Below are positions 5,034 to 28,784 of a stretch of DNA of 29,059 nucleotides, piece after piece. The notes beneath the pieces were generated by a model that was not told where the DNA came from, made no database searches, and saw nothing but the letters and a program-made list of their open reading frames with translations. This DNA comes from a virus. Taxonomy: Duplodnaviria; Caudoviricetes. Every line of letters begins with the position of its first letter. Within the stretch, counting starts at the first letter, position 1. The position numbers and the translations under genes were made by a program. The stretch spans positions 1 to 29,059 of the IMG/VR virus record IMGVR_UViG_3300030372_001671. One strand, given 5' to 3'.

Positions 5034-5043
5034 ATGCATTTCC

Positions 5044-5289: not shown

Positions 5290-5299
5290 ATATTTCCTC

Positions 5300-5330: not shown

Positions 5331-5340
5331 ATTTATAAAC

Positions 5341-5742: not shown

Positions 5743-5797
5743 ATATTTATCTCCTTATTAAGCAAGTTAAAAAACGAGTCCATTTCTGGCACTCATG
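5743..5797 (-). promoter_or_regulatory. ROSE-like RNA thermometer in the hsp20 5' UTR
   Basis: Hairpin GAGUGCCA-GAAA-UGGACUC, then CUUGCUU-AAU-AAGGAG in which U(U/C)GCU pairs with the SD and a G is bulged. Confidence 0.7.
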
Positions 5798-5802
5798 ATG
5801 TA

Positions 5803-5831
5803 ATTATACACCACCTAATTTTAAAAGTCAA
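5803..5831 (-). promoter_or_regulatory. sigma70-type promoter for hsp20
   Basis: TTGACT-17 nt-TATAAT. Confidence 0.8.
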
Positions 5832-5838
5832 GAACTTT

Positions 5839-5961
5839 TTATATATTTAATAAACCAAATGTATTTAATATAGCCATAAGTATTACATATAGCATCCATA
5901 ATCCTACACAAATAGCCATACCATTAACTATTAATTTACATATTATATCTAGTAGTGTCAT
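5839..5961 (-). CDS. 40-aa hydrophobic membrane peptide
   Basis: MTLLDIICKLIVNGMAICVGLWMLYVILMAILNTFGLLNI*; ATG immediately follows the DUF59 stop. Confidence 0.55.
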   Translation of the reverse strand: MTLLDIICKLIVNGMAICVGLWMLYVILMAILNTFGLLNI

Positions 5962-6273
5962 TTATATTAATCCTAATTCTAGTTTACCACTCTCTGAAAT
6001 CATATCTTGTGTCCAAGGTGGGTCCCAAGTAATACCAACTCTGACTATATTAACCTCTTCTAACTTTGCCACTTCATCTTCTATTTGCTTTGGTAAATCT
6101 TGAGCAACTGGACAATGTGGTGTAGTAAGAGTCATAAGAATGTCAACATTATTATTTTCTTTTATATCTACATTATATATTAAACCTAAATCATATATAG
6201 AAATAGGTATTTCAGGGTCATATACTTTTTTTAACACGTCTACAATACTTATTTTTAAATCTTCATTATTCAT
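5962..6273 (-). CDS. sufT: DUF59 / SufT-like Fe-S cluster assembly protein
   Basis: VYDPEIPISIYDLGLIY..MTLTTPHCPVA..ITWDPPWT (DPE-T-C motif). Confidence 0.9.
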   Translation of the reverse strand: MNNEDLKISIVDVLKKVYDPEIPISIYDLGLIYNVDIKENNNVDILMTLTTPHCPVAQDLPKQIEDEVAKLEEVNIVRVGITWDPPWTQDMISESGKLELGLI

Positions 6274-8198
6274 TATATATCAACCAATTCACATGAACCT
6301 GCAGTACAAGCTAACTCTTGTGAACCTCTTGTATTATCTTCTGTCTCAAACTTTTGTAATAAAGACCAGTCAATATTTTTAGGCATCTTAGATTCTAATT
6401 CTTTATATTTCATTTCATCTATATCTTGATAAGGTGCTTGTTGATATGTATGGTCTGAGAAAGGTAAGAATGATATACCAGATAGTGTATCAAAATTATC
6501 CCAACACCAGTTACCTACATTAATCCATTCATGTTCCTTAACAGATATAGTTACTGAAGGTTTATGTTCACACCAATGTTGTGCATAACACTTCCATATC
6601 TCTAACTGTTCAATAGCTGTCATAGTATCTCTATATATAGCACCAGGTTCTGTTTTCATAGGAAAAGAAAAGACAGAATTATTAGGTTGCATAACATCAT
6701 CTTCACAAGGTATACCCTGCTCTGCCATAAACTGTGTTAGTGGGTCTTTCTTATCTCCCCTTACTGTTCTAATGTAATATGGATTATGTCTAGCATGAAT
6801 ACCACTAGCACTATCAACTAACTGACTAACTGTACCTGAAGGTTTAACACAAGTAATAGCTGTTGATTGTTGTATTCCTAATTTTTTAGACCACTCTTCA
6901 TTTACTAATACAGCTTTGTATCTCATCTTGCTTAAAAAATCTGGTAAAGGAGTTCTCATTCTAGACAATAAACTATTATCCATAATACCTGTAAGAGACA
7001 CACCTAATAATCTTTCTTCTTCTGTATTTGTTTGCCATCTTTTTCTAAGATAACCAAAGTCTGTTAGTGTTGCTTGTATTGTACCTAGTATAGTAGCTAC
7101 TTCTATCTTATCATGTAACATATCTTCTGTATCTGTAGGTCTTACAACTACCTCTGTAAGATTACAAAATTGATTAGGTCTTAATATAATTTCACTACAA
7201 GGATTAGTACCAAAATCCCAATTACTATTACGTCTACCATTTTCTTTAGCTTTTTCTTGAGCAGACTTTCTATTAAAGATACCACGTTCACCAGATTTAC
7301 TTTCATATAATGCTAACCATTCTTTCATAAAGATACCTGCATCTGGTTTCTCTGTATATGCTACAGAGTTATTAGCTAATGCTCTTTCTGGATTAGTCTC
7401 CCACCAAGCACCAGACTTAGCAACTCTTAATCTCTGGTCTGATAAATTAGACAGAGATATAAGAGCTGACCTACGCACACCACCTACAACTACAACCTCA
7501 CCTGTTTTACAAACTATATCATGGCACTCCATAGAAGATAGTTTTCTACCTTTAGCATTTTTAAACTTCTCAATAGTAAAATCAAAAAGATTAACTAAAG
7601 GTTGAGGACCACTTGCTCTACCACCAAATGTTTTTAATCTCTCACCTGCAGGTCTTATTTTGCTTACATTTATCTTTGGTATTCTACAAGTATAAAGAAA
7701 AGATATTAAATCTTTAAAAGCTCTTGCCCATCCTTCTTTAGAATCAGCAACAGATATAACATCTTCTGTCTTTTCAAACTCTCTATCTGGTATAGTAGGT
7801 AACTTATCTACATACTGTCTTTCAACAGAAAAACCTACACCTGTACCATTCATAAGTATATATAATACTTCATCAAAAGATTTAGGTGTATCAATAGGTA
7901 TATACGAACAGTTATATCCTGCTATGTTTTCTCTTTCTAATGCATTGCCTGCAGTCATTAATGCTCTCATAGAAGGCATAACATTTAATCCTATTATATT
8001 ATCTTCTATTCTTCTCCATACTTCACTATCTAATTTAACACCTAGATTTTTATTTAAATGTATTTGAAAGAAATTAGTTAATCTAGTTACTGTTTCTATC
8101 CATGTTTCTCTTCTACCCTCATCAGGTAGCCAACGTGCATATCTAGATGCATGAATAAACGTCTGATATTCTGTTGGTAAATAGTTATTCCCTGCCAT
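6273..8198 (-). CDS. nrdJ: Class II (adenosylcobalamin-dependent) ribonucleotide reductase
   Basis: MPSMRALM, YNCS, GTGVGFS, GGVRRSA, TNPCSEI, TCVKPSGTVS and C-terminal ACTAGSCE; no NrdB small subunit in the window. Confidence 0.92.
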   Translation of the reverse strand: MAGNNYLPTEYQTFIHASRYARWLPDEGRRETWIETVTRLTNFFQIHLNKNLGVKLDSEVWRRIEDNIIGLNVMPSMRALMTAGNALERENIAGYNCSYIPIDTPKSFDEVLYILMNGTGVGFSVERQYVDKLPTIPDREFEKTEDVISVADSKEGWARAFKDLISFLYTCRIPKINVSKIRPAGERLKTFGGRASGPQPLVNLFDFTIEKFKNAKGRKLSSMECHDIVCKTGEVVVVGGVRRSALISLSNLSDQRLRVAKSGAWWETNPERALANNSVAYTEKPDAGIFMKEWLALYESKSGERGIFNRKSAQEKAKENGRRNSNWDFGTNPCSEIILRPNQFCNLTEVVVRPTDTEDMLHDKIEVATILGTIQATLTDFGYLRKRWQTNTEEERLLGVSLTGIMDNSLLSRMRTPLPDFLSKMRYKAVLVNEEWSKKLGIQQSTAITCVKPSGTVSQLVDSASGIHARHNPYYIRTVRGDKKDPLTQFMAEQGIPCEDDVMQPNNSVFSFPMKTEPGAIYRDTMTAIEQLEIWKCYAQHWCEHKPSVTISVKEHEWINVGNWCWDNFDTLSGISFLPFSDHTYQQAPYQDIDEMKYKELESKMPKNIDWSLLQKFETEDNTRGSQELACTAGSCELVDI

Positions 8199-8481
8199 AA
8201 TCTTTCTCCAATATTAATTCACAATAATGTATTACTTTCTCAATGTCTCTTGCACCTTCACCTTTTCTTCTATGTCTTGTAATATATTTTACTACATTAC
8301 CCTCAAGAAATGTAAGGTTATTTTCTACAATATAATCAACAGGTTGTATCTTACATGTCTTGTAATGGTCACCACCTACCTGTCTATCAGTAGCAATTCT
8401 AGCTTCTTTCTCTAAATTTATTTTCTTAAAACCTTTTTTATCTTTTACTGTTTCTCTAATAGCTTCATCCATTTGTCCCAT
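8185..8481 (-). CDS. DUF3310 (SaV / T7 gp1.7-like) protein
   Basis: QVGGDHYK..IQP..FLEGNVVKYITR..KG..DIEKVIHY. Confidence 0.85.
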   Translation of the reverse strand: MGQMDEAIRETVKDKKGFKKINLEKEARIATDRQVGGDHYKTCKIQPVDYIVENNLTFLEGNVVKYITRHRRKGEGARDIEKVIHYCELILEKDYGRE

Positions 8482-8490
8482 AAACCTCTC

Positions 8491-8580
8491 CTATAATTTT
8501 GTTAAAAAGTATGCTATCAAAACAATAAACATACCTAAAATTATTCCTATAATAAAACATGTTAATAAATTAAATTCCAT
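8491..8580 (-). CDS. 29-aa hydrophobic peptide
   Basis: MEFNLLTCFIIGIILGMFIVLIAYFLTKL*; fills the gap between tightly packed genes. Confidence 0.5.
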   Translation of the reverse strand: MEFNLLTCFIIGIILGMFIVLIAYFLTKL

Positions 8581-8581
8581 A

Positions 8582-8887
8582 TTATATCATCTTTTTTATT
8601 CTTTGTCTAACATATTTTAAATCTGGTGAATGAATAACTTTATATGCAAAACTTCTTGTGTATGTAGGACTTAATCCTGCATGGTCACATATCTGTTCAA
8701 AGTTATCACATGTAACACCAACACTACAAAAGAACCATGCTATTGCTCTATCTTTATTTACCTTACTCTTATTATTAGTAGCATCTAATAATGCTTGTAA
8801 GATAACAGACAAAAATAAACCTCGTTCAGGAGCTTCATGTTTCTTTTGCTCTACATCTATAAATATATCAATTTTCTTTTTCATCAT
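8582..8887 (-). CDS. Hypothetical phage protein
   Basis: ORF track; ERGLFLSVILQALLDA..AIAWFF..FEQICDHAGL pattern; packed between neighbours. Confidence 0.8.
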   Translation of the reverse strand: MMKKKIDIFIDVEQKKHEAPERGLFLSVILQALLDATNNKSKVNKDRAIAWFFCSVGVTCDNFEQICDHAGLSPTYTRSFAYKVIHSPDLKYVRQRIKKMI

Positions 8888-9089
8888 TTACTATTGTATG
8901 TAACATTTCTATAGCATCTTTTGCTTCAGATGCTTTATGCACTAGACCTATTACATCTTCTACAATCTTAGGATGTTCACCTACACCCACAGGATTATTG
9001 ATATGTATTTTAATATTTGCTAATGCTTTGTCTCTTTCTGCTGTATAATGAGACATAACTGCTTCTAATATATATGCTTTTGCTACCAT
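8868..9089 (-). CDS. Hypothetical phage protein
   Basis: ORF track; AAGGA SD; NPVGVGEHP motif. Confidence 0.8.
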   Translation of the reverse strand: MVAKAYILEAVMSHYTAERDKALANIKIHINNPVGVGEHPKIVEDVIGLVHKASEAKDAIEMLHTIVNDEKEN

Positions 9090-9099
9090 TTTATTTCCT

Positions 9100-9963
9100 T
9101 TACCAATCTATTATTTCTTGAACCCTAGGTTCTTTATAAACTTGTGTAAGATATGTTGTGCCTTTTTCATACTTAAAAGCACGAAGTCCTTGACCATTGT
9201 TAGCATCAGACCAACACTCTCTTTTATGAGCACAAAAAACACAACCAATAGCAAGCTTCCTATTCCCAGAAATACCTTCAGGAATATCACTATAACATCT
9301 ATCAGGAACTCTTTTACTTTCCAATGCACCTTTAAGATATTTAATTCTTTCTTTTGCATCTATCATCTCCAAATCATGTACTCTTGTTAAGGCAATATTA
9401 CCATGCTGTTTATCTATAGCTAAGAAACATGCTTCTTTAACATTATTACCTGCAGAGTATGCAGATATTTGTGCTATATATCCAAAGGGGTCATCATCAG
9501 CTAGTCTATTATTAGCAAATTTTTTAAATGCATAACCACTAGCACTCTTACAATCTACTAATACATTATCTATCTTACAATCTTGATGTCCTTTAATACC
9601 TTCTACATCTACTTGCTTTTGTTCTTCTGTAACTGTATGACCAGATGCTCTAGACAATAGTATAAGTAAGTCTTCAAGTATGTGACCATATAAAAATTTA
9701 ATTCTAGTAGCAGAAGATATAGGTCTTGCTTCTGAACTAGAATGTTTATCATACCATAACTGTCTAGTAGGTTTACCTATAGCTGATAAAGATAATTTTC
9801 TTTGCTTTCTAGGTTGTTCATTTAAAACAGTCTTTATATTATTAGTTACATTCTTTGTAAATTCTTTTAGATGTTTATCTAATTCTTTTTCATCTATAGT
9901 ATTTGTAACCATAGGGTCAAATAAATTATATATATCTTCTACTAATGTGTCTATTGTTTTCAT
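9100..9963 (-). CDS. Cas4-like PD-(D/E)XK exonuclease
   Basis: LSAIGKPTRQLWY, GHQDC..LVDCKSAS, YIAQISAY, CVFCAHKREC. Start at MKTID preferred over 9984. Confidence 0.85.
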   Translation of the reverse strand: MKTIDTLVEDIYNLFDPMVTNTIDEKELDKHLKEFTKNVTNNIKTVLNEQPRKQRKLSLSAIGKPTRQLWYDKHSSSEARPISSATRIKFLYGHILEDLLILLSRASGHTVTEEQKQVDVEGIKGHQDCKIDNVLVDCKSASGYAFKKFANNRLADDDPFGYIAQISAYSAGNNVKEACFLAIDKQHGNIALTRVHDLEMIDAKERIKYLKGALESKRVPDRCYSDIPEGISGNRKLAIGCVFCAHKRECWSDANNGQGLRAFKYEKGTTYLTQVYKEPRVQEIIDW

Positions 9964-10017
9964 ATCTAATGTAGTGCCCTGCAATAATACAAGGCACTAC
10001 CCTTTCTATGTTAAAGA

Positions 10018-10497
10018 TTAACTAGCAAAAGAAACTTCTTCGTCAGCTTCTTTAGATACAAAACCATCTTCAACTACACCAAATGCTTCTTCAGCATCTG
10101 CATCAGTATTGTATGGTACTAAGTTTGTTACTTGTATTGCTCTTAAATCAGCAGATACACCAGACTTACCACCAAACTCCCACTCATATGTAGAGTATAA
10201 TACATTAACTTCAGAACCATTACCAATTAATGTACCAATCATTGCTCTCTTCTGAGCATCTACAACTTCAGGAGCCTTATTTAAGTTACCATCTTTTCTT
10301 CTTACTTTTCTTTTGATAGTAACAAAGTCACCTCTGTCATCATTCTTATTCTTCACAGAGATTCCATCAGCTTGAGCAATCTTTTTATTCTTCTCGTCAA
10401 GATTACCAACATCAATAGTCCACACACCATCTGAATCAAATGTTGTATTTGGACTTGTTATACTTGCCCAATGGGCATTACCTTTTATTACACTCAT
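10018..10497 (-). CDS. ssb: Single-stranded DNA-binding protein (T7 gp2.5 / DUF2815-like)
   Basis: MSVIKGNAHWAS..PEVVDA..IGNGSEVNV..DLRAIQVTNLVPY with an acidic tail; own SD (AAGGA) and promoter; in frame with the upstream gene. Confidence 0.85.
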   Translation of the reverse strand: MSVIKGNAHWASITSPNTTFDSDGVWTIDVGNLDEKNKKIAQADGISVKNKNDDRGDFVTIKRKVRRKDGNLNKAPEVVDAQKRAMIGTLIGNGSEVNVLYSTYEWEFGGKSGVSADLRAIQVTNLVPYNTDADAEEAFGVVEDGFVSKEADEEVSFAS

Positions 10498-11088
10498 ATT
10501 ATTATCCTTTATTGTTGTTAAAATAGAATTATCACATATTCTAGTAGAAAAGTCAAGACTTTTTTTCCAATTAAATGTACTTTTTAATTGTAATACTTTT
10601 GACATTTCTATTCTAGATATTAAATCTTTTTTGTTTTGGTAACTCCTACCCCAAACTTTATAGTTTGCTTCACGAAAATACTTAACCTTATCAGTTAAGT
10701 CTACAACTTCATGACACAACTCTCTTAACTCTTCAGAGTTAGCAAAAACATATTCATCTTCTTGTTCAAAAACAAAGTAATCACATTTGCCATATAACCA
10801 ACCTGCATTACCCATGGTATTTTTGAACTCCACTACAGTCCATAAGTCATCAAAACCTTTTGACTTATCTGTTCCTGTTCTTCTTGCTTTTATATCTACT
10901 GTAAATGTTTCATCCCCTTTCATTAAAATTAAATCAATATGGTCAGACATGTTCTGAGAATCAGAAGCAACCTTAACTTCATAACCTAATTTAATTGCTT
11001 CATCTATAAATAAATTCTCTGTTCTTATACCACGTTTAATATAATCTTTGTGGTCATGTCTTCCCTTAAACTCTTTAACTGTTACCAT
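10498..11088 (-). CDS. PD-(D/E)XK nuclease-like domain reading in frame into ssb
   Basis: E..F, HIDL, TVDIKA, VEFKN..GWLYG motifs; no stop before the ssb ATG. Confidence 0.65.
10528..10556 (-). promoter_or_regulatory. Internal sigma70 promoter for ssb
   Basis: TTGACT-17 nt-GATAAT with extended -10 TG. Confidence 0.75.
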
Positions 11089-11524
11089 TATATTTCTCCA
11101 AATAGTTTACTGCTCTTTTTAAAAAATCTATGTTATCATCAAACCAACCTAAAGCTGAATTACATTTATTACATAACCAACCTCTAGCTTTTCCTGTGTC
11201 ATGGTCATGGTCTAAACACCATTGATTATTTCTTTGCTTGTTTTCTTCAGCACTTGTCAAACAAATAGGACATCTATAATCTTTAGGTGGAGGAGGAGTA
11301 ACTAATCTTAATTGTCTTGTTTGTCTATTCCTCTCATTAGCACAAGATTTACAAACTCTTTCAGTAGAAGGTAATCCTGTAGTCTTTTGATTATAACCAT
11401 AACTTTGAAAGGCATCTAATGGTTTAGTCTTATTACATTTAACACATGTCTTTAATGGTTTGCTTGTATCAATAGATTCACAATCATTAAACAATTCTTT
11501 TTGTACTAATGAGTCTCTGCCCAT
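11075..11524 (-). CDS. Recombination endonuclease VII family (His-Me) nuclease with N-terminal CxxC motifs
   Basis: CVKC, CKSC, CPIC, LDHDHDTGKARGWLCNKCNSALG. Confidence 0.85.
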   Translation of the reverse strand: MGRDSLVQKELFNDCESIDTSKPLKTCVKCNKTKPLDAFQSYGYNQKTTGLPSTERVCKSCANERNRQTRQLRLVTPPPPKDYRCPICLTSAEENKQRNNQWCLDHDHDTGKARGWLCNKCNSALGWFDDNIDFLKRAVNYLEKYNGNS

Positions 11525-13140
11525 GTCGTGCCTTCCTTCCATTCACTATCTAATGGACACTTCATCTTCAACTGATGCTCTGTATCTTTCATAGCATCTT
11601 TGGTAATACTACCAAATCTTTTTACATCTTTCTTTGCAACTTCATATTGGTATTCATCATGTATAGATGCAACTAACTTAGCATCAACACCTGTTTGTAC
11701 TATTCTTTTATTCATGTTTATTAACCACAACTTACATACAACAGCACCTGCTCCTTGCAGTAATGTATTTAATGCACTATGTGGAGAACGTACATGTAAT
11801 AGTCTACCATCAATACCTTTTATCTTACCTCTCTTAGCTGTTTCAGTTACACTATCCCTAACTCTTTTAAGAGCAGGCATGTTAGAAAGAAACCTATCTA
11901 TTAATATCTGTCCTTCTTTAGCACCTGCACCTACTATCTTACCTATCTTAGATGCACCTGCACCATACATAAAAGCATATATAAATGTTTTAGCTTGGTC
12001 TCTATCTGTTAAACCTGCCATCTTCATATTAGCTGTATGTATGTCTCCATTTAATACTTCTTCAGTAAAGTTTTTATCATCCATAAGATGTGCTAAACAT
12101 CTAAGTTCTAAACCACTAGCATCAGTACCAACAATGGAGTGAGTATAGGGATTGTCAACAGTCCAACATTCCCTACACTCTTTACCATATGGAGAACGAA
12201 CAGCAGGAATCTGAGCCATGTTAGGACTGTTATGTGCCATACGACCTGTTACAGTACGTAATGTCATAACTCTACCATGTACTCTACCATCCTTATCATT
12301 ACACGATTCAATCCAAGATTTAATCTGTGCAATTCTTTTTTGTAATAACAAATACCTAGCAAACTTCTTTGCTTCTTCTAAGTCTATGCTATTCAAAACT
12401 TCTTCATTAACAATTACATTACCTTTATCAGTATGCTTCTTAGGTTTCCAACCTAGTTCTTGTAATCTATCAGCTATCTGTTGTCGTGAACCTATATTAA
12501 AAGGTATGTATTTTGTTTTTGTTTTTAAGTCTTTTCTTGTAGGGTCAAAGTGTATCTTACCCCACTTTTCTAACTCACTTGCTTCATCTCTCAATGTATT
12601 ATATAAAGACATAGCTTTACGAACATCTAATGCAAAACCATTTCTTTCTTGTTGGTCAATTATAACTCTTACTTGATGTTCTAAATCAATAGAAGACCTA
12701 GAAAAACCTTTGCCTTCTTTCTTTAAATGTTCATATAACTTATGTGTTATATTTACATCTTGCATACAATATCTTTTTAATTCTTCTGTATATTGACCAA
12801 AGGATTTTATATCTCCTTTAGGAAAATTAAATCTATCTCCCCATGCTCTTAGTCCATGACCACCATCACGTAATGGATTAAATAACTGTGATAATATTAA
12901 TGTATCTAATACTTGTGAAGGTTTAATATTTGTACCTAACAATCTATTTAATACAGGAGCATCAAAAGATAAACCATTATGCATAATATATTGTTTAATA
13001 TCTTTAGACCAGTCTTTAAATACATGCATATTACTTGGGTCAAATACTGTAGACACATTTGTTTCAATATTTTTAGCAACAATACAATTAATTACTTTAG
13101 CATTTATCTGGTCTGTTTCTATATCAAGAACAACTTTCAC
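11506..13140 (-). CDS. polA: Family A DNA polymerase with 3'-5' exonuclease (Tyr762 type)
   Basis: LDIET, HNGLSFD, YCMQD, TGRMAH..PNMAQ, DASGLELR, AKTFIYAFMYG, SIHDE. GTG start at 13140 after AGGAGG. Confidence 0.96.
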   Translation of the reverse strand: MKVVLDIETDQINAKVINCIVAKNIETNVSTVFDPSNMHVFKDWSKDIKQYIMHNGLSFDAPVLNRLLGTNIKPSQVLDTLILSQLFNPLRDGGHGLRAWGDRFNFPKGDIKSFGQYTEELKRYCMQDVNITHKLYEHLKKEGKGFSRSSIDLEHQVRVIIDQQERNGFALDVRKAMSLYNTLRDEASELEKWGKIHFDPTRKDLKTKTKYIPFNIGSRQQIADRLQELGWKPKKHTDKGNVIVNEEVLNSIDLEEAKKFARYLLLQKRIAQIKSWIESCNDKDGRVHGRVMTLRTVTGRMAHNSPNMAQIPAVRSPYGKECRECWTVDNPYTHSIVGTDASGLELRCLAHLMDDKNFTEEVLNGDIHTANMKMAGLTDRDQAKTFIYAFMYGAGASKIGKIVGAGAKEGQILIDRFLSNMPALKRVRDSVTETAKRGKIKGIDGRLLHVRSPHSALNTLLQGAGAVVCKLWLINMNKRIVQTGVDAKLVASIHDEYQYEVAKKDVKRFGSITKDAMKDTEHQLKMKCPLDSEWKEGTTWAETH

Positions 13141-13444
13141 AATCTTCTTCCTCCTTCCCACACCAATTACAAGGTTCACCTTTACCTACTGCCATCATAC
13201 TATGTTCTTCATGGCAATAGTGTTCCCACATTTCAGGCTCTTCTTCGTTTTTATCTAACCATTCTTTATAACCTTCTATCCAAATTTGCTTATCATCTGT
13301 TTCATTTTTTGGTAAGTATACCATATGAAAAGCACCACAGTTAGGACAGGATAAATTTGTTTCCATACAATAGTCCTCATCTTCATGGGCAATGTCATGG
13401 TCTCCTCCCCATATTAACTCTGTATCACAATGCCAACACTTCAT
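13124..13444 (-). CDS. Cys/His-rich acidic protein, probably Zn-binding
   Basis: CWHC, CPNC, CNWC, CESC; coupled to the helicase stop (TAATG). Confidence 0.7.
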   Translation of the reverse strand: MKCWHCDTELIWGGDHDIAHEDEDYCMETNLSCPNCGAFHMVYLPKNETDDKQIWIEGYKEWLDKNEEEPEMWEHYCHEEHSMMAVGKGEPCNWCGKEEEDCESCS

Positions 13445-15087
13445 TAGAATGGTACCTCCTCATTATTCTCTGCATTATAATCTACTTCATAAGGATTGTT
13501 AATCTCTTTCATACGACCTGTCTCTTTATTATAATGTAGATGTGTGGCTATACCTGTTTCTCCTGTATACCTGTTCTTTAAAATACGAATCGTAGTAGTG
13601 TTAGATTTAACTTCATCATCATCTTGTTGGTTTCTTTCTAATCCAATTACACCATCACTTAAATGAGCAATAGATGCTGAACCTCTAAGATGTGATAGAG
13701 TAATCTCTTTACCATTCTCATGTCCTGCATCACCTGCAGGTCTTCTTAAATGAGATACTAATAACATACCAATACCTGTTTGCTCTACAAGAGAACGCAT
13801 CTTAGTCATTAATACATCAATAGACTTTCTTTCATCTCCATCTTCCTGACCTGATACAAGTATAGATAAGTGGTCAACAAATATCCATTTACATTCTAAT
13901 GCTTGTGCCATGTATCTAACTCTAGATAGTATCTCGTCATTATCAATAGAACCAAAATGGTCAAAGGCAAAGAACCTACCAGAGCCAACTGTATTCTTTT
14001 GATACTCTTGTAATTGCTTTCTACTAAAACAATTATCTCTAATCTCTTTGATATATAATCTAGCATTAGCTTCTACTGACATAATATTAAATGCAGTATT
14101 TTTAATACTCTCTTCTAATGCAAGTATACCTATGTTATGATTTGTATTTTTGAGTAAATGATGCATGAGTTCTCTCATAATAGAAGACTTACCCATACCT
14201 GCACCAGATGTAAATGTAATCAACTCTCCTGTTCTCATACCATAAGTCTTTTCATTCATCTTACTCCAAGGATAAGGTACTGTTTCACAATACTCTTCTG
14301 TGTATAAAGCATCTCCTAAATCTCTAAGATTAGTAATACCTGCAGGAGTAAAAGGCTCTGCGTTCCACCATGCTTGAGAAAACTTTTCTCTCTTACCCAT
14401 TTTTAGATACTCATTAGCATCTTTAAATTCCATGTTCATTATCTTACATTTGTTAGGACTAAACAACTGTGCTACTTTTTCACTAGCTTCTCTACCTTGC
14501 TTATCCATATCAAATGATATGACTATATTTTGAAAGCTATCTAAGTATTCAAATGCTTTTCTACAATCACGTACAGCAGACCCTGCACCTGTCTTAATAG
14601 AAACACATGCCCACTTGCTACCTAATAATTCATAGGCAGACATAGCATCTACTTCACCTTCAGTAATGGTTACATACTTACCACCACCTGTAAATAAATC
14701 TTGTCCAAACAATACTGCATTAGTTACATTTCCTTCTACCCACATATTTTTTGTGGCTACATCTCTAACCTTATTACCAATATTGTTTCCACCACTATCA
14801 AAGTATTTATATATATGATGTGTATTCATATTACCATTTACTTTAACTTGTGTGTGATATTTTTGTGCAGTTTCCTTACTAATATTTCTTTCAGTCAACG
14901 CACCTGTTACACCTACAGTTTTTATATTACTTTCAGTAGGTATAGGTACTACCTTTTCATGTTCCATATGCTCTCCAAATCTAGTGTTACAGGAAAAACA
15001 AAAACTATACCCTTCTGCATGATTGACGTTGCCATCACTTGACCCACACTTAGGACAAGCACCCCTATCTAGCCATGTTTTATCCAT
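13444..15087 (-). CDS. T7 gp4-like primase-helicase
   Basis: Zn finger CPKC..CFSC, TOPRIM ITEGEVD / FDMD, Walker A SGAGMGKS, FVDHL, LVSHL, LRGS, KNRYTG. Confidence 0.96.
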   Translation of the reverse strand: MDKTWLDRGACPKCGSSDGNVNHAEGYSFCFSCNTRFGEHMEHEKVVPIPTESNIKTVGVTGALTERNISKETAQKYHTQVKVNGNMNTHHIYKYFDSGGNNIGNKVRDVATKNMWVEGNVTNAVLFGQDLFTGGGKYVTITEGEVDAMSAYELLGSKWACVSIKTGAGSAVRDCRKAFEYLDSFQNIVISFDMDKQGREASEKVAQLFSPNKCKIMNMEFKDANEYLKMGKREKFSQAWWNAEPFTPAGITNLRDLGDALYTEEYCETVPYPWSKMNEKTYGMRTGELITFTSGAGMGKSSIMRELMHHLLKNTNHNIGILALEESIKNTAFNIMSVEANARLYIKEIRDNCFSRKQLQEYQKNTVGSGRFFAFDHFGSIDNDEILSRVRYMAQALECKWIFVDHLSILVSGQEDGDERKSIDVLMTKMRSLVEQTGIGMLLVSHLRRPAGDAGHENGKEITLSHLRGSASIAHLSDGVIGLERNQQDDDEVKSNTTTIRILKNRYTGETGIATHLHYNKETGRMKEINNPYEVDYNAENNEEVPF

Positions 15088-15109
15088 ATTAATCCCCATT
15101 AAAAATTTT

Positions 15110-15138
15110 ATTATATACTATTATATATTGTTAGTCAA
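15110..15138 (-). promoter_or_regulatory. sigma70 promoter for the replication operon
   Basis: TTGACT-17 nt-TATAAT. Confidence 0.8.
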
Positions 15139-15310
15139 TATCAAAAGAACTATCATATATTTTATTATAAGCATCTATCTCAACTTCTTTTGTTTCATGT
15201 ATATCTCTTTTGGCTAATTCCATAGCTTCAAAAGATTCATAACCTTCCTCAAGGTACTCATAATATCTTTCTTTAATTAGTTCTTTTATTTCTTTTTCTA
15301 ATAAATTCAT
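15131..15310 (-). CDS. Small acidic hypothetical protein
   Basis: MNLLEKEIKEL.. start preferred (GAGAG upstream) over 15391. Confidence 0.7.
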   Translation of the reverse strand: MNLLEKEIKELIKERYYEYLEEGYESFEAMELAKRDIHETKEVEIDAYNKIYDSSFDID

Positions 15311-15454
15311 CTTATTCTCTCTTGTTATAATGTAAGTAAATAAAATATAAAACTTACAGTTAAAAGTATAGGAAACAAATGGTTTACCCATAATATTTTC
15401 TTATGACTTTTTTTAAACCATTTTCCTGTGGCTTTTAATCTTCTTTCTCTATCT

Positions 15455-15652
15455 TTATTCATCTTTAATATGTCCTGCATCTGGATTTTCTACTACTAAA
15501 TCATATCCAAAATCACTTTGCACTCTTTTAAATTGTTTGAGTTCTGTTTTTAGCACACTAACTTCTGATACTAACTCTTTAACTCTAACTCTTAATCCAT
15601 GCACTTCTTTTTCTTTTTCTGCTAAAGATTTTTCATATATATTTTCAGTCAT
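15455..15652 (-). CDS. Hypothetical coiled-coil protein
   Basis: ORF track; ATGA overlap with the upstream gene. Confidence 0.7.
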   Translation of the reverse strand: MTENIYEKSLAEKEKEVHGLRVRVKELVSEVSVLKTELKQFKRVQSDFGYDLVVENPDAGHIKDE

Positions 15653-15840
15653 TGTACACTCATAATTTCTATATTGTCATCTATCAATGCTTGTATTTGT
15701 ATATTTCTTTCATCATATAAATTTTGTAAAAACTTTTTAGCATCTGTTTTATTTTTAAAATACATAACTTTACCATCATCTTCTTCTAATATATCTGGTA
15801 ACTCTACTTGATTAGGATATGGCATAGCTATTACATACAT
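15649..15840 (-). CDS. Hypothetical protein
   Basis: MYVIAMP.. start lies just downstream of the promoter at 15850-15878 (nearly leaderless). Confidence 0.65.
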   Translation of the reverse strand: MYVIAMPYPNQVELPDILEEDDGKVMYFKNKTDAKKFLQNLYDERNIQIQALIDDNIEIMSVQ

Positions 15841-15849
15841 ATTATTTTT

Positions 15850-15878
15850 ATTATACATTACATTTTTCATATAGTCAA
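15850..15878 (-). promoter_or_regulatory. sigma70 promoter
   Basis: TTGACT-17 nt-TATAAT. Confidence 0.75.
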
Positions 15879-15950
15879 TACCCAATGTAAGGCACAATAA
15901 AACATAGAAAATACCACCCTAAAATACCTGCAAGTATTTGCATCATTTCT

Positions 15951-16127
15951 TTATTTATATTTATCATTCTTAATACTCCTTTCAACTTTTTTGTATAAAC
16001 TGTTGTTATATTTGTGTAATTTATAATTAACTTTATTATCTTTTAGCATATCAAACAACCTATCTAGCACATCTTTTTTAGAAGGTCGTCTATTAAAATC
16101 TAATTCTATTTCTACTTTGTACTTCAT
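15951..16127 (-). CDS. 58-aa hypothetical protein
   Basis: MKYKVEIELDFNRRPSKKDVLDRLFDMLKD..*; ATGA overlap; below the ORF-track cutoff. Confidence 0.6.
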   Translation of the reverse strand: MKYKVEIELDFNRRPSKKDVLDRLFDMLKDNKVNYKLHKYNNSLYKKVERSIKNDKYK

Positions 16128-16291
16128 ATCTTAATCTCTTGTATATTTATGTCTAAATAATCTGCAAGTAAATATCTTATCTCTGTGTAGCAATCATCAC
16201 ATAATAAAAGATTACATGCTCTATTCTCCATATCTTCTGGGTATGCTTTATTAGAGCAATCTTCTTTTTGACATTTAATTTTTTTACTCAT
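16124..16291 (-). CDS. Small Cys-rich hypothetical protein
   Basis: MSKKIKCQKEDC...LLCDDC; GGAG upstream. Confidence 0.65.
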   Translation of the reverse strand: MSKKIKCQKEDCSNKAYPEDMENRACNLLLCDDCYTEIRYLLADYLDINIQEIKI

Positions 16292-16610
16292 CTTTATTCT
16301 CTTTCTCCCCAGAGATAGCACCTATCTTTCCTTTGAAAGGTATAACTTTTGCACTAGGTCTAGTATCAATAGGCATATCTGAATCAAAAGATACCTCTGG
16401 TGGAAACATAAAATCTTCTAGTTCATTAAACCCACCTATGTGTAGAAAGATTTGTGGCACAGTCTTATGTCCTGCTTCTCTAAATCTTTTTATCTTAGGT
16501 AAGTTATCTAGCACTCTCTCTTCGTATACTTCTCCTGCTTCATCTAGTAATGCCTTTGCTTTGGCACAATACTCACAGTTCTTTTGTGTGTATATAATAT
16601 ATTTAATCAT
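16284..16610 (-). CDS. grx: Glutaredoxin
   Basis: YTQKNCEYCAKAK..TVPQIF..IGGF. Confidence 0.9.
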   Translation of the reverse strand: MIKYIIYTQKNCEYCAKAKALLDEAGEVYEERVLDNLPKIKRFREAGHKTVPQIFLHIGGFNELEDFMFPPEVSFDSDMPIDTRPSAKVIPFKGKIGAISGEKENKDE

Positions 16611-23246: not shown

Positions 23247-23275
23247 TTGACACAAGTGGGGGAGTAGTGTATAAT
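23247..23275 (+). promoter_or_regulatory. Consensus sigma70 promoter for the packaging/structural arm
   Basis: TTGACA-17 nt-TATAAT. Confidence 0.85.
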
Positions 23276-23367: not shown

Positions 23368-24912
23368 ATGAATGAGACTATAGAGACTATAGAGACTATC
23401 TCTCCCTTAATTACCCTAGATAGCTTGTTATCACAAAAGGTTGAACAGGATTCTAATCTAGATTTTATTACATTTGTTAGAAAAGTAGCTCCAACACTTG
23501 TTTCTGATTGGAAGATGGGTAAACATATAGAAAAAATAAGTGAAAAACTACAGCAACTAGAGTCTGGAGAGATAAAAAGGCTCATGGTATTCCTACCACC
23601 ACGTTCTTCTAAGAGTGTTATCTGTTCTAAACTGTTTCCTGCCTGGTATATTGGTAGAAATCCAGAACATGAGATACTAACTATCTCTCATAGTGACCAA
23701 TTAAGCTCTGATTTTGGTAGAAGTGTTAGAGATATTGTTAATACAGAAGACTTTCAAAACATATTTAGAGGTGTTTCTCTAAGAAGTGACGTTAGAGCTG
23801 CAGGTAAATGGAAGACAAACCACAATGGCACGTATTATGCTGCAGGTGTTAGAAGTCAAATAGCAGGAAGAGGAGCTCACATAGCAATATTAGATGATGT
23901 GATGTCTGAAGAGGACTCTTTCTCTGAAGCAGGTAGAAGATATGTTAAAGAATGGTACCCATCAGGACTACGAACACGTATTATGCCTAATGGTTCTATC
24001 TTAATAATAAATACTAGGTACCATTATGATGATTTATGTGGGTGGCTATTAAAACAACAAGAGAATGTGGGTGATTATGCTGTTACTCCTTGGGAAGTAG
24101 TACGTATTCCTGCATGGTTAGATGAAGAATCTGCTGAGTTACTAGATTTACCAGTAGGTAGTAGTTATTTTCCTGAATGGAAACCTGATGATGTTTTAAA
24201 AATAGATGAAGCAGAGATAAAAGCTTCTAATGGTGCACGATATTGGAACGCATTATATATGCAGGACCCAACACCTGATGAAGGTGGTATCATTAAAAAG
24301 AAATGGATACAATATTGGGATGATGAAGAGCCACCACCTTGTGAGTTTATAATACAAACTTATGATACTGCTTTTTCTACATCAAGAACTGCAGACTTTA
24401 GTGTAATACAAACATGGGGTATCTTTCATACCTATGAAGAAAGTGAAGATGGTTATGAACAATATATATCACAACTAATATTATTAGGAAATATAAAAGG
24501 TAGATTTGAATATCCAGAGTTAAGAAGAATAGCACAACAATTATATGATGAACATAGACCTGATGTTTGTATGATAGAAAAGAAAGCATCTGGTCAATCA
24601 CTTATACAAGATATGAGAAGAGCAGGACTACCTGTTTTAGAATATCTACCAGATAGAGACAAAGTATCTAGAGTATATTCTGCTACTCCTATGATGGAAG
24701 CAGGTAGAGTATGGATACCTAGTAATAGAAAATGGTCAGAAGATTTATTAGAAGAACTATTACGTTTTCCAAATGCTGCTCATGATGACCAAGTAGATGC
24801 AATGACAATGGCAATACACTATATGAAAGAGTCATGGCACCTTGAGCATCCTGAAGACCCAGAGTGGGATGACCCACCTGCAAAAAAAAGAGTTGCATAT
24901 TGGAGAACTTAA
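23368..24912 (+). CDS. terL: Terminase large subunit
   Basis: Walker A LPPRSSKS, GRGAHIAILDD (Walker B), INTRYH, LYMQDP, nuclease YDTA, IEKKASG, HDDQVDA. Confidence 0.96.
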   Translation: MNETIETIETISPLITLDSLLSQKVEQDSNLDFITFVRKVAPTLVSDWKMGKHIEKISEKLQQLESGEIKRLMVFLPPRSSKSVICSKLFPAWYIGRNPEHEILTISHSDQLSSDFGRSVRDIVNTEDFQNIFRGVSLRSDVRAAGKWKTNHNGTYYAAGVRSQIAGRGAHIAILDDVMSEEDSFSEAGRRYVKEWYPSGLRTRIMPNGSILIINTRYHYDDLCGWLLKQQENVGDYAVTPWEVVRIPAWLDEESAELLDLPVGSSYFPEWKPDDVLKIDEAEIKASNGARYWNALYMQDPTPDEGGIIKKKWIQYWDDEEPPPCEFIIQTYDTAFSTSRTADFSVIQTWGIFHTYEESEDGYEQYISQLILLGNIKGRFEYPELRRIAQQLYDEHRPDVCMIEKKASGQSLIQDMRRAGLPVLEYLPDRDKVSRVYSATPMMEAGRVWIPSNRKWSEDLLEELLRFPNAAHDDQVDAMTMAIHYMKESWHLEHPEDPEWDDPPAKKRVAYWRT

Positions 24913-24921
24913 TGTTATAAT
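24893..24921 (+). promoter_or_regulatory. sigma70 promoter at the end of terL, driving the cassette genes and portal
   Basis: TTGCAT-17 nt-TATAAT with extended -10 TG. Confidence 0.65.
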
Positions 24922-24942
24922 AAAAGAATAATAGGGGAAATT

Positions 24943-25842
24943 ATGACAAAAGCATTAGCAGGATTAGCAGAACTTTTAGTTAAAGGAGGAAGTGCTAAAA
25001 CTAAAGCACAAGAAGTTCTTGAAACTTATACTAAAAAAAATAAAACAAAAGATGATTTAAAAAATATTTCTGATGAAGACCTTTCATTAGATGATATAAG
25101 AAAAAAATATAAAGTTAATCAAAAACAAAAAAGAATACCTGAAGTTCAAACAGCAGCTCAAAAACTTTATGAAGGAAAAATTGATAAAAAGTTTTATGAT
25201 AGAGTTGTAAAAGCATATCAACCAATAAATTTAATTACAGAAATGCCAGAAGTTCCTTCTCTAAAAAGAATACAAGGAACATTAAAATCTAATCAGTTAG
25301 AAGAAGGTGTAGTAGGTATAAATAAAAAAGGAACTGATTTAGATGGTAAAAGAGTAGCTTCACGTTTAGATATTCCTGCTTATGAAAATTATGATACATG
25401 GGTTGTATCTTTACATGATGGAACTAAAACAGGTGGTAAAGCTATTGGATATGGACAAAGTGCTGTTTTAAAAAATGTTGAATTTAAATCATCTGAAAAA
25501 GGTGGTTTAAATATTGCTAGAGGAAAAACACCAAAAGCAACAATAGGAAGAATACATGGAGATTATTTAGATGCTCCTACTGAAAATGTTTATAATAAAA
25601 TACAACTAGAATTAAATGACCCTAATTCAGAATATGTTCAAATAGGAATGAATCCTTTTAGACATAGTTATTTTTATGATAAAAAAACTGGTGAACCTGT
25701 TTTAGCAGCAGATGAAGTTTTACAACTAGGTCCTTTAGTTTTAGGTAAAGGAGTTGTTAAAGGAAAGCCTAAAGATTTTAAATTTAAAAAAGGTGGTATG
25801 GTAATACGTAATGATAACTATAATACACAGAGAGCAATATGA
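24943..25842 (+). CDS. Cassette protein A: shared termini around a globular core of unknown function
   Basis: ORF track; N- and C-termini match the next gene. Confidence 0.85.
   Translation: MTKALAGLAELLVKGGSAKTKAQEVLETYTKKNKTKDDLKNISDEDLSLDDIRKKYKVNQKQKRIPEVQTAAQKLYEGKIDKKFYDRVVKAYQPINLITEMPEVPSLKRIQGTLKSNQLEEGVVGINKKGTDLDGKRVASRLDIPAYENYDTWVVSLHDGTKTGGKAIGYGQSAVLKNVEFKSSEKGGLNIARGKTPKATIGRIHGDYLDAPTENVYNKIQLELNDPNSEYVQIGMNPFRHSYFYDKKTGEPVLAADEVLQLGPLVLGKGVVKGKPKDFKFKKGGMVIRNDNYNTQRAI
25819..25840 (+). repeat. 22-nt direct repeat, copy 1 (copy 2 at 26340-26361)
   Basis: tataatacacagagagcaatat is identical at both gene ends. Confidence 0.9.
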
Positions 25843-26363
25843 CAAAAGCACTATCAGGTTTAGGTAAGCTATTAACAGGAGCTACAACAAAAACTAAAGC
25901 TCAAGAAATACTTGAAACATATGCAAATAAAAATTTAACAAAGTCTGATAAAAAAACTTTAGATAATTTTTATAAACAAAAAGATGAAGACTTAATAACA
26001 GACTCTGAATTAAAATCAAAGTTAATTGATAAGTTTGGTAAATCAGCTTCACCTTTAAATGAATATAAAATTAACTTTAAAGTAATAAGTCCTAAGATGT
26101 TTTATAGTGGTGAAAAAGGTAGTTTTAGAATTGGAGATAATATTAATAATGTTACTATTAAAGCATCTTCAGAAAAAGAAGCAAAAGAATTATTAAAAGA
26201 AACACCTCAATTTAAAAATGCATATAAATATGTATTAGACAATATGCCTAGTGGTGCACCTGCTAATCCAAGATTAGTTATAAAAGGAATTACAGAAAAG
26301 AAAAAAGGGGGAACAGTAATGAAAGATTATTACAAAAATTATAATACACAGAGAGCAATATAA
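25839..26363 (+). CDS. Cassette protein B: shared termini around a different core
   Basis: ORF track; ATGA and TAATG coupling to its neighbours. Confidence 0.85.
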   Translation: MTKALSGLGKLLTGATTKTKAQEILETYANKNLTKSDKKTLDNFYKQKDEDLITDSELKSKLIDKFGKSASPLNEYKINFKVISPKMFYSGEKGSFRIGDNINNVTIKASSEKEAKELLKETPQFKNAYKYVLDNMPSGAPANPRLVIKGITEKKKGGTVMKDYYKNYNTQRAI

Positions 26364-28012
26364 TGGCAATAGAAAAAAATCCATTTGATAAAATAGAAAA
26401 AACTATATCAAATGTAGTCAAGCTTCCAGAACAAATTAAAGAAGCAGCAGGTTCACCAACTATAGAACCAGATGAAGATGGGGGAGTTACTGTAGACTTC
26501 ACCCAGGCTACTATAGAAATGGAACCTGAAAGTGAAATGAAAGAATGGTATGGTAATATAGCTGATAACTTAGAAGAAGGTGAGTTATCACAAATTGCAG
26601 AAGATGTAATTAATAATTATACTTCAGATAAAGATTCTAGAGCTGAATGGGAGTCAATGTTTGAAAGAGGATTTGATTTACTAGGATTAAAGATAGAAGA
26701 TGCAAGTGAACCTTTTGAAGGTGCCTGTACTGCTGTTCACCCTATGTTAATTGAATCAGCAGTTAAGTTTCAATCAAAAGCTATACAGGAAATGTTTCCT
26801 GCAAATGGTCCAGTTAAAACACAGATATTAGGTAAGGTAACTCCTGAAAGACAATTACAATCTAATAGAGTAAAAGATTTTATGAACTATCAAGTAACTG
26901 AGCAAATGCCAGAATACTTTGATGAGTTTGAAAGAATGTTATTTCATTTACCTCTTATAGGTTCAGCATTTAAAAAAGTTTATTATGATGCTAACTTAAA
27001 AAGACCAGTATCTGAATTTGTTCCTATAGACCAATTCTATGTTTCTTACTATGCTTCTAACTTACGTAAGGCAGATAGATACACACATGTTATCTACAGA
27101 AGTCCAGTAGATTTAGCAAAAGATATGCGTACAGGTATTTATGATGAAATAGAATTACCTGAAGCTACTAATCCTAATCCTACATCTTTCTCAGAAAAGA
27201 TGGATACAATATTAGGATTATCTCCTACAGAAAGTAGTGACCCACAATATACATTATTAGAACAACATTGTTATCTTGAAATAGAAGAAGACTATGCTCT
27301 TCCCTACATTGTTACTGTGGAAGAGCAATCTAGAATTGTTTTAAGTATAAGAAGAAACTATAAGAAAGATGATAAACAACAACAAAAGATTTCCCATTTT
27401 GTCCACTACAGATTTGTTCCTGGATTTGGATTTTATGGGTTTGGCTTGATGCACTTTCTAGGCAATCTTACTATGACTGCAACTGCAGCTATGAGAAGTC
27501 TAGTAGACGCAGGTCAATTTGCAAACCTACCAGGAGGATTCAAAGCAAAAGGTGTACGACTTGTTGGTGATAATGAACCAATTAGTCCTGGTGAATTTAA
27601 AGAAATAGAAGCAACTGGAGTAGATTTGAATAAGGCAATTATCCCTCTCCCCTATAAAGAGCCTTCCTCTACTCTATTTCAGATGTTAGGTTTCGTAACA
27701 GCAGCAGGTCAAAAGTTTGCTGATAGCACAGAACAAATTGTTTCTGATGCAGCATCTTATGGACCTGTTGGTACAACTATGGCTTTATTGGAAGCTTCAA
27801 GTAAATTCTTTTCAGCTATACATAAAAGATTACATAAATCTCAAAGAGAAGAGTTTAAGATTCTTGCACGTATAGACTATGAGTATTTACCTTCAGAGTA
27901 TCCTTATGAAGTTCCTTTTGCTGAACAGAATGTGTTTAAGAAAGATTTTGATGGAAGGGTTGATGTAATCCCTGTCTCAGACCCTAACATTCCTTCTAAT
28001 GCACATACCTAA
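26363..28012 (+). CDS. Portal protein, N-terminal part (frame interrupted)
   Basis: Position after terL; PFEGACTAVHP, MNYQ, GSAFKKVYYD, GFYGFG, PVGTTMALLE, DVIPVSDPN, typical of podovirus-type portals. Confidence 0.85.
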   Translation: MAIEKNPFDKIEKTISNVVKLPEQIKEAAGSPTIEPDEDGGVTVDFTQATIEMEPESEMKEWYGNIADNLEEGELSQIAEDVINNYTSDKDSRAEWESMFERGFDLLGLKIEDASEPFEGACTAVHPMLIESAVKFQSKAIQEMFPANGPVKTQILGKVTPERQLQSNRVKDFMNYQVTEQMPEYFDEFERMLFHLPLIGSAFKKVYYDANLKRPVSEFVPIDQFYVSYYASNLRKADRYTHVIYRSPVDLAKDMRTGIYDEIELPEATNPNPTSFSEKMDTILGLSPTESSDPQYTLLEQHCYLEIEEDYALPYIVTVEEQSRIVLSIRRNYKKDDKQQQKISHFVHYRFVPGFGFYGFGLMHFLGNLTMTATAAMRSLVDAGQFANLPGGFKAKGVRLVGDNEPISPGEFKEIEATGVDLNKAIIPLPYKEPSSTLFQMLGFVTAAGQKFADSTEQIVSDAASYGPVGTTMALLEASSKFFSAIHKRLHKSQREEFKILARIDYEYLPSEYPYEVPFAEQNVFKKDFDGRVDVIPVSDPNIPSNAHT

Positions 28013-28784
28013 AAAAGAACCACAATCTATGGACCCAATATCAGATATTATGGCAGCAACAAAAGGTATTCCAATAAGAGCATTTGAAGGTCAAAATCAT
28101 GATGCTCATATACAAGCTAAGATGGCTTATTTACAAGACCCTAAAAATGGTGCTAATCCTATTATGGCTAGAATTAAACCAATATTAGAATCTAATATAC
28201 AAGAACATTCTGTTATGAAATATCAAGAACAAGTTAATGGTATTACAAGAATGGGATTAGAACAATTACCACCAGAGCAATCACAAGTAGCTACCATAGC
28301 AGAGATGGCAATGGCTCAAGCAGCACAACAAGTATTAAATGCTAATCAAGCTATGGGTCAAGCACAATCACCTGAACAACAATTAGTTGCATTGAAACAA
28401 GCTGAAGTAGGATTAAAAGAAAAAGAATTAAAAATGGAAGAAGCTAAACTTTCTATGGAGTCTACTTTAGATGCTCAGAAGTTACAATTAGAAGAAGCTA
28501 AGTTAATGAAGGATGCAGGAGTTGCAGGTCAAACAGCTATGTTAAGAAAAGAAAAATCTGACCTTGATAGACAAAGTAAAGAAACTATGAAACTATTAGA
28601 TTTAATTGCAAAGTCAGAAATAGCAGAAAAAAAGTCACAAATAGATTTAGAAAAGATAAGAGCACAAGCTTTAGAAAAAGTAGCAAATATGGAAACTTTA
28701 GATGATAGAGAAAGAAGTATGAAACTATTAGATGTAATGTCTAAAGCAATATTAGAAGATTCTAAACAAGAAAAGAATAACTAG
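27999..28784 (+). CDS. Portal protein C-terminal part (Q/E/K-rich coiled coil) in the +1 frame
   Basis: AFEGQNHDAHI motif and helical Q-rich tail typical of portal C-termini; no SD before 27999. Confidence 0.65.
   Translation: MHIPKKEPQSMDPISDIMAATKGIPIRAFEGQNHDAHIQAKMAYLQDPKNGANPIMARIKPILESNIQEHSVMKYQEQVNGITRMGLEQLPPEQSQVATIAEMAMAQAAQQVLNANQAMGQAQSPEQQLVALKQAEVGLKEKELKMEEAKLSMESTLDAQKLQLEEAKLMKDAGVAGQTAMLRKEKSDLDRQSKETMKLLDLIAKSEIAEKKSQIDLEKIRAQALEKVANMETLDDRERSMKLLDVMSKAILEDSKQEKNN

Follow-up and report, generated by a model that had tools for sequence, protein, structure and literature searches.

In bacteriophage T4, the signal that targets internal proteins is N-terminal and is removed by the prohead protease. 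Encapsulins, which are cellular compartments whose cargo is not ejected, use short and usually C-terminal cargo-loading peptides to bring enzymes unrelated to each other inside a shell of HK97 fold. The capsid-targeting sequence of T4 loads internal proteins into the prohead, and one of them, IPI*, is injected and has an anti-restriction role (PMC3012670). In MuF toxins, the variable parts include ADP-ribosyltransferases, and gp7 of SPP1 binds the portal and is present in one or two copies per capsid (PMC5576092). Phage polyvalent proteins occur in a portal–terminase context and are predicted to be packaged (Iyer et al., 2017; PMC5512222), and the crassvirus cargo protein C1 binds the portal via a folded domain (PMC10172136). 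More generally, the way in which podoviruses select non-structural proteins for packing and injection is known for few phages.

We analysed a 29,059-nt phage fragment (the window; position numbers are those of the whole stretch), in which two adjacent genes, ORF-A and ORF-B, occupy the slot between the genes of the large terminase (terL) and the portal (Table 1). A portable C-terminal peptide on polymorphic cargo is a real and widespread feature of this locus and its relatives, and its function is what we infer from sequence comparison: with a probability of about 0.55, the genes are cargo cassettes and the 20-residue tail is a head-loading tag, by which their products would enter the prohead and later be delivered into the next host by injection.

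Table 1. Features of the terL–portal slot in the window.
Feature	Position	Strand	Remarks
terL, large terminase	23368..24912	+	left border of the slot
Promoter-like TTGCAT-N17-TATAAT	24893..24921	+	extended -10 (TG before -10); putative promoter function
ORF-A	24943..25842	+	299 aa: leader, core and tail
ORF-A leader	24943..25056	+	predicted helices; lineage-specific MTKAL type
Core A	25090..25782	+	well-folded domain including L5 gp82-like part (PF25735, residues 144-259)
ORF-A tail, FKKGG to stop	25783..25842	+	free peptide, modelled with low confidence
22-nt exact repeat, copy 1	25819..25840	+	SD-like GAGAG; ATGA overlap with ORF-B
ORF-B	25839..26363	+	174 aa: leader, then a small helical segment, a beta domain at residues 73-155, and tail
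ORF-B tail, KKKGG to stop	26298..26363	+	low-confidence in the model
22-nt exact repeat, copy 2	26340..26361	+	TAATG overlap with portal start
Portal	26363..28784	+	right border of the slot
Portal N-terminal EKNPF	26372..26386	+	motif in common with the tail consensus ERNPY

The portal is 41–45% identical to those of the pelagiphages HTVC023P and HTVC027P, the roseophages CRP-901/902, and DSL-LC04, and the order of the head module is the same in all of them. CRP-901/902 have been placed beside HTVC023P in a paper whose accessible portion contains no virion proteome (PMC10149686); similarly, no virion proteome or structure of the clade was found in the literature within reach. An estimated 5,200 or so stored viral stretches match the portal patterns, and phmmer found no PDB relative of the portal. 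The best reading is that the tail-bearing genes belong to HTVC023P-like marine podoviruses.

On the minus strand, positions 125-16610 of the window encode a class II (B12) ribonucleotide reductase, HSP20, an Fe-S assembly protein, glutaredoxin, an MptE-like/methyltransferase fusion, GT8, a 3-TM holin, PolA and a primase-helicase. The small terminase (125-610) lies far from terL, on the opposite strand. Among small leftward genes, a 25-nt repeat ending TTTTTCCTAT is present between 19277 and 21251 in four copies (79–100% identity), which are likely to be repeated early-gene start signals. Upstream of terL, at 23247-23275, there is a perfect TTGACA-17-TATAAT promoter-like site.

An earlier note on this DNA had described the pair as cassettes with constant termini and unrelated cores. 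The leaders of ORF-A and ORF-B have about 38 residues in common and the tails about 20. In a BLASTP comparison, the N-terminal part aligned (45% over 89 columns, E 1e-12) and, besides it, just the last 20 residues; the weak likeness reaches about residue 83, and neither BLASTP nor profile–profile alignment detected any in the cores beyond. When the two families were compared profile to profile, the tail alone aligned, and the predicted models of the two proteins differ in secondary-structure layout. The pair does not fit plain tandem paralogues, since the cores do not align along their length and the layouts differ. The termini quoted in the earlier note, the coordinates, the position between terL and portal and the absence of likeness between the cores were all borne out, as was the identical 22-nt repeat with its GAGAG, which leads into overlaps of ORF-A with ORF-B (ATGA) and of ORF-B with the portal (TAATG). 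The proposed promoter also exists as a site. Its -35 lies in the last codons of terL (VAYW), and it was missing from the scanner's list because the -35 agrees at three of six positions. Similar sites follow terL in relatives, where 72 of 120 distinct terL ends carry TTGnnn-16/18-TAYAAT and 56 of 120 carry TGnTATAAT.

Mis-assembly of the gene pair was ruled out by identical contigs from two samples, which cover 24781-26932 (X1, possibly the source sample) and 24850-26384 (X3) with 0 differences. The portal reading frame is split into 549 + 261 aa, with 128 nt missing at 28007-28008 relative to one related locus (L001) and similar gaps against two others (L003, L004). Contigs of X1 and of a further sample, X2, end at 28007 with extra letters, and the split is therefore likely to be an assembly collapse.

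The consensus of the tail is xxGG-x-V-x-(ERNPY)-x-Y-xx-[RK]-x-I-stop, about 20 residues long. A profile built from 167 seed tails gave 167 distinct matches in 351 loci, all of them C-terminal (three flagged as internal end at most 8 residues off), and 0 on reversed ORFs. By place, 117 of these matches lie in the slot, 8 just after terL, 14 between the portal and MCP genes, 4 after MCP and 24 on stretches without markers; the initial idea that the tail occurs only in the slot was overturned by this wider sampling. Against 1.84 billion representative proteins, the profile had 138 matches, of which 137 stop no more than 2 residues short of the C-terminus; the remaining one (P0193) was discarded as a chance repeat; as the earlier note had anticipated, the tail sits on many different cores. 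Similarly, a DNA pattern that does not include the stop codon gave 81 distinct matches; in 78 of them, 7–8 codons separate the match from the stop codon, the ORF being long or cut by the contig. Of five near-complete relatives, four have one copy of the tail each and the fifth has none; in one of these genomes the tail gene is directly behind the ejection-protein cluster. Seven relatives, six of them cultured and one not, had no match to the profile among those of their head-module proteins that were scanned, and no isolate turned up with exactly this tail. Among PDB sequences the profile found nothing below E 0.06, and NCBIfam had no match to one 30-aa tail. No description of the tail was found in the literature within reach, outside which lie subscription papers, including the original HTVC023P description.

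Two other explanations of the tail's conservation were discarded. A separately translated mini-ORF behind an SD encoded by the GG codons is unsupported, as M is not conserved and 93% of the seeds have V or I at the conserved position that comes first behind the GG-x pair. An internal promoter is ruled out by the TATAAT-like codons, which read TATAAC in 25 of 67 cases.

Among 158 tails, isoleucine is the last residue in 147, R or K stands at -3 in 152 and A at -2 in 86, GG is present in 155, and 13–17 residues follow it in 153. In both models the tail has a pLDDT below 50 (residues 285-299 of ORF-A, 157-174 of ORF-B). A basic residue before a non-polar, free C-terminus recalls the ClpX signal of MuA, RRKKAI (PMC8138137), and the tail could be a C-terminal degron or unfolding tag of this type, by which host ClpX would shorten the lifetime of toxic cargo or unfold it, such as ADP-ribosyltransferases that could damage the producing cell. 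However, conservation extends over about 18 residues, from xxGG through ERNPY, which far exceeds what a degron needs; the tail is also found on muramidases, and only in the late module; its likeness to the portal, described below, is left unexplained; and the [RK]-x-I end is confounded, being partly accounted for by the SD and overlap of the next gene. We consider a degron unlikely.

The content of the slot was examined in two sets of loci. Among 60 loci that were fetched with the portal alone and have both borders, we count 10 tail-bearing slots, 14 empty ones and 36 with other genes. In an enlarged set of 121 distinct slots, 67 have tail genes, 34 other genes and 20 none, counts which are biased and not independent because the loci are related and were partly fetched by tail patterns. 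One tail gene is present in 61 of the 67 tail-bearing slots and two in the remaining 6, so the expandable array of the earlier note is not borne out, a slot holding at most two tail genes. Gene number (0–2 tail genes) and cores do vary, as had been predicted; relatives do not always carry the same two genes. In 19 loci whose portals are at least 88% identical, the cores in the slot belong to six clusters unrelated to one another. Two loci, L098 and L155, differ completely in their cores, which are unrelated, although portal residues 1-330 are identical. In one sample, a short contig joins the promoter to the portal start, with 30 letters on its shorter side, which corresponds to an empty slot. 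In four loci of one lineage (L016, L018, L100, L128), a second copy of the TTGCAT-type promoter lies between the tail gene and the gene behind it, either the portal or a further cassette.

Core swapping was analysed with 78 portal-adjacent tail genes, which provide 178 pairs, not independent of each other, with close backbones and different cores. In these pairs the identity of the tail DNA is 0.84, compared with 0.52 in the 90 nt before the tail, and the common sequence stops at a median of 6 nt upstream of the first Gly codon of GG. Cores are therefore exchanged at xxGG, and the tail remains attached to its backbone. This junction may be a recombination site or the site at which products are kept by selection; as regards the recombination handle of the earlier proposal, it is the boundary that is supported. 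Swappable cargo would explain why a packaging operon that is conserved elsewhere contains a hypervariable island.

Such a sharp junction also fits an alternative in which the tail is a mere DNA or RNA element, namely a recombination handle and a ribosome-binding or coupling site, and the peptide has no role of its own, being a neutral by-product. In different-core pairs, tail DNA follows the backbone (Spearman 0.41); 54 of 58 NYNTQRxI contexts are TAATG-coupled; in L096 and L121, an unrelated gene is flanked by direct repeats of tail DNA; and codon usage is skewed: the tail Arg codon is AGG in 51 of 67 (3% background), the Ile codon ATA in 66 of 67 and the first Gly codon GGG in 34 of 64 (2% background). 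The AGG and ATA skew arises because the last codons are partly fixed by the SD of the next gene; the GGG bias hints at a DNA-level role. However, 52 of the 58 contexts are in frame with ORFs of at least 80 codons, 4 are cut by the contig start and just 2 are short and closed. In addition, K and R exchange at -3 (AAG 33, AGG 17, AAA 16 and AGA 9 of 76), both Gly codons of GG vary synonymously, and tails persist uncoupled and at other genome positions. In ERNPY-type tails, codons for Lys and Arg mix, and the next ATG is at an offset of 2 to 11 or is missing within 20 nt. In the four loci with a second promoter, the tail is kept though a promoter, not a start codon, comes next, and its Arg codon has relaxed to AGA in all four. 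The retention of the tail without a downstream start codon, at varied offsets and at other positions argues for a constraint on the protein. A neutral peptide is therefore improbable, and by these sequence criteria the tail is both a peptide and a DNA element.

In L096 (700-1134) and L121 (1-350), which lie outside the slot, the tail DNA is a 20–29 nt direct repeat that flanks an unrelated 95-aa membrane gene. The upstream copy is a cargo-less remnant whose frame is broken at the GG codons, and the downstream copy is out of frame; a relative of the membrane gene occupies the slot of L054.

The N-terminal leader does not show the constancy of the tail. A profile of the MTKAL leader had 10 distinct matches, all within the window's lineage, and clustering the leaders of 116 intact tail proteins gives 52 families, of which 11 are found with more than one core. 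Of the constant termini proposed in the earlier note, the C-terminal one stands, as a likely signal, and the N-terminal one does not. The leader common to ORF-A and ORF-B is best read as a recent within-lineage copy. A loose motif, [GA][LI]xx[LIV], is present in the first 25 residues of 60 of the 116 tail proteins, compared with a mean of 10 in internal windows. Tat-like (twin-arginine) N-termini were observed on tail-bearing proteins of L134, L144 and L156, with similar ones in L113, L135 and L009 (PF10518 at E 1e-4, just below the cut-off; TIGR01409 at the cut-off); such cargo may use, or mimic, host Tat export. Two small proteins are possibly empty cassettes, or else assembly fragments: P0225 (48 aa), an almost coreless leader and tail, and P0218 (55 aa), which is basic and tail-ended with several xxGG.

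The cores are highly diverse. By the 110 residues before the tail, 155 tail proteins of at least 100 aa from the loci form 31 clusters, and 113 representatives of at least 100 aa from the 138 database matches form 47, an upper bound because some representatives look like chimeric fragments. Cargo sizes range from 170 to 2000 aa. A Pfam scan of 92 of the 113 representatives, short and suspect ones being omitted, identified 20 ART-PolyVal domains (12 above the curated cut-off), 8 muramidases, 3 L5 gp82-like proteins, 1 GNAT, 1 ParB-like and 1 likely spurious family; 58 had no match. The locus proteins additionally include methyltransferases and one Zeta-toxin-domain protein. Core A (model pLDDT 89.7) matches the L5 gp82-like family PF25735 at E 1.4e-6, and its invariant residues include R141, D143, K198 and Q261. 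It recurs as a module in large phage proteins named as containing ART-PolyVal, PcfJ, Zeta or lysozyme domains, and in CRP-9 gp54, which is encoded between the portal and coat genes. The view of the cores as delivered cargo is thus supported as far as their type is concerned, which is that of polyvalent proteins. Core B has 11 database relatives and no family match. Fold searches of the cores gave no clear structural match, the L5 gp82-like part of core A being the one assignment obtained: Foldseek found nothing in the PDB for core A at E 0.001 and VIA a best Z of 2.4; for ORF-B, BFVD gave no match at E 0.001 and the best VIA scores, Z 6.5 (rmsd 2.0, 56 aligned) and 6.4 (rmsd 2.4, 59 aligned, ribosomal chains), are in the common range; the ESM Atlas had no usable match for either.

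A second xxGG-led tail type, ending ALRG[FY]G, was observed on transglycosylases encoded after the MCP gene (L004, 8388-9278; L017, 18303-18941), and a protein with core B, P0131, bears a tail of this type. In L018 (681-2945), a 755-aa protein has three modules that are also present in L067, L016 and L100 at 84–98% identity; judged from these matches, cassettes fuse there into polyvalent chains.

The tail has a motif in common with the portal. Across 3,595 distinct ORFs (916,085 aa), E[RK]NP[FY] has 286 instances, compared with 1.25 expected by composition, and its sites are 182 portal N-termini and 104 tails, with none elsewhere; the tails were partly sampled by this motif and the portal starts were not. 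In a distant clade (portals at 38–45%), the portal starts MP[IV]DKVVN, and 8 of the 10 listed tails read VERVxN or VERMxN, the other 2 VDRKDD. The window's own tails have drifted from ERNPY (IRND, MKDYY), so the likeness is a family-level result. The simplest reading is that tail and portal arm would use a common binding site; alternatively, the tail may have descended from a duplicated portal start. A complex prediction for one tail (L313) with portal residues 62-682 and MCP scored 0.00 in both runs and gives no indication either way, its three chains being unlike the calibration.

The xxGG motif extends beyond the tails. It is enriched in slot genes (212 vs 64 shuffled) and post-MCP genes (103 vs 42 shuffled), unenriched in early genes (14 vs 14 shuffled), MCP and portal, and present in a phrog_4287 DNA ejection protein. 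It can be tentatively supposed that, in abundant marine podoviruses, xxGG tails form an address code of the head interior, in which the tail would copy the portal docking arm and the cargo would be injected ahead of the genome, a fuller scheme that we hold possible and rather doubtful. If it is true, a domain recombined before xxGG would gain a portal docking site, and one short sequence would be at once swap point, ribosome-binding site of the portal gene and packaging signal. Large tail-less slot proteins in L023, L024, L026, L030 and L048 have xxGG followed by a GLSS[IL]-like motif, and so does the phrog_4287 ejection protein of G003.

The basic character of xxGG tails raises a further explanation, that they bind DNA nonspecifically and the cargo enters the head with the genome, as small basic core proteins do. 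Many small K/R-rich late proteins with repeated xxGG exist (HTVC027P gp44 and gp47), and P0218 combines such a sequence with a tail. However, the distal half of the tail (ERNPY, Y and final I) is aromatic or hydrophobic, needs a free C-terminus and matches the portal arm, so that little weight falls on DNA binding. Small, very basic proteins with repeated xxGG cluster after MCP (L361 88-762, L029, L050, L064, HTVC027P gp44-gp52) and are candidate DNA-condensing core proteins.

The earlier note had also suggested that KKGG could be a protease site, at which the tail would be removed during head maturation. The near-invariance of GG, its position at domain borders in large proteins such as CRP-9 gp54, and the processing of T4 internal proteins after loading (PMC3012670) are consistent with cleavage. 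However, in a search that covered S78, S49 and Mu-like prohead proteases, the S78/S49 types were not found in the genomes of five near-complete relatives, and the Mu-like type had no match anywhere; 19 scanned late proteins were likewise without a protease, except for MCP matches to fused head-protease profiles. The MCP, of about 300 aa, has no visible pro-domain. Cleavage at KKGG is not supported by these searches and is unlikely, although an unrecognised or host protease could be the cutter.

We return to the reading of the tail as a head-loading tag. Late transcription would start from the promoter in the end of terL, with translation coupled to that of the portal, the last codons of the tail doubling as ribosome-binding site of the next gene; in HTVC027P, the slot genes gp41 and gp42 are late genes (PMC12753301, Table S3). 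The free tail would then dock on a head protein, most likely where the portal N-terminal E[RK]NP[FY] arm binds, the candidate partners being the coat, the scaffold or a neighbouring portal subunit. After injection, the cores (ADP-ribosyltransferases, muramidases, methyltransferases, GNAT, cores A and B) would take effect during entry, on the cell wall or by countering host defences. A 20-residue tag recognisable in sequence would provide an inventory of the proteins that a widespread group of marine phages injects; many unnamed domains among them would become candidate anti-defence or wall-breaching enzymes. It would also make it possible to test directly whether cargo is loaded by mimicry of the portal arm, and it could be used as a portable signal with which proteins are brought into heads of the HK97 type.

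This arrangement can be compared with the systems introduced above. The encapsulin peptides have a different consensus. The internal proteins IPI, IPII and IPIII of T4 likewise carry a short constant peptide on highly diverse, exchangeable proteins, but the signal of the window's family is C-terminal, of about 20 aa and without noted sequence likeness; its cargo spans the size range given above, its genes are inside the packaging operon, and the variety of leader families leaves no N-terminal targeting peptide common to all cargo. MuF toxins (SPP1 gp7, Mu gpF) are likewise encoded beside the portal and terminase and combine a constant loading part with a variable enzymatic part, and the placement of most tail genes in the slot or just after terL is MuF-like. 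However, the constant part is here a short C-terminal peptide and in MuF an N-terminal domain; most tail genes lie upstream of the portal, and what follows them is as a rule the portal itself (49 of 63 distinct NYNTQRxI tails abut its start), not a small immunity ORF. No MuF domain (PF04233/PF06152 superfamily) was found in the 74, 36 and 92 proteins scanned with Pfam.

Polyvalent proteins draw on the same pool of domains as the tail cargo (ART-PolyVal, lysozymes, ParB-like, methyltransferase, GNAT), but they are multi-domain chains, whereas the tail genes are mostly single-domain cassettes, each with its own tail. Their range of 2–15 domains per chain excludes ORF-A and ORF-B and includes the three-module protein of L018 and a 2016-aa protein of L239. 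The accessible portion of the account of these proteins names no short C-terminal loading peptide (PMC5512222). Among the closest relatives, HTVC023P-type pelagiphages, CRP-901/902 and DSL-LC04 also have a variable terL–portal slot (0, 1 or 2 genes; a PcfJ protein in DSL-LC04) and xxGG motifs; unlike them, the window encodes a T7-like primase-helicase as well as a class II RNR. As there is no shared N-terminal signal, MuF domain or immunity ORF, the tail system stands outside the T4 capsid-targeting and MuF families: by analogy, it would work like either of them and be a member of neither.
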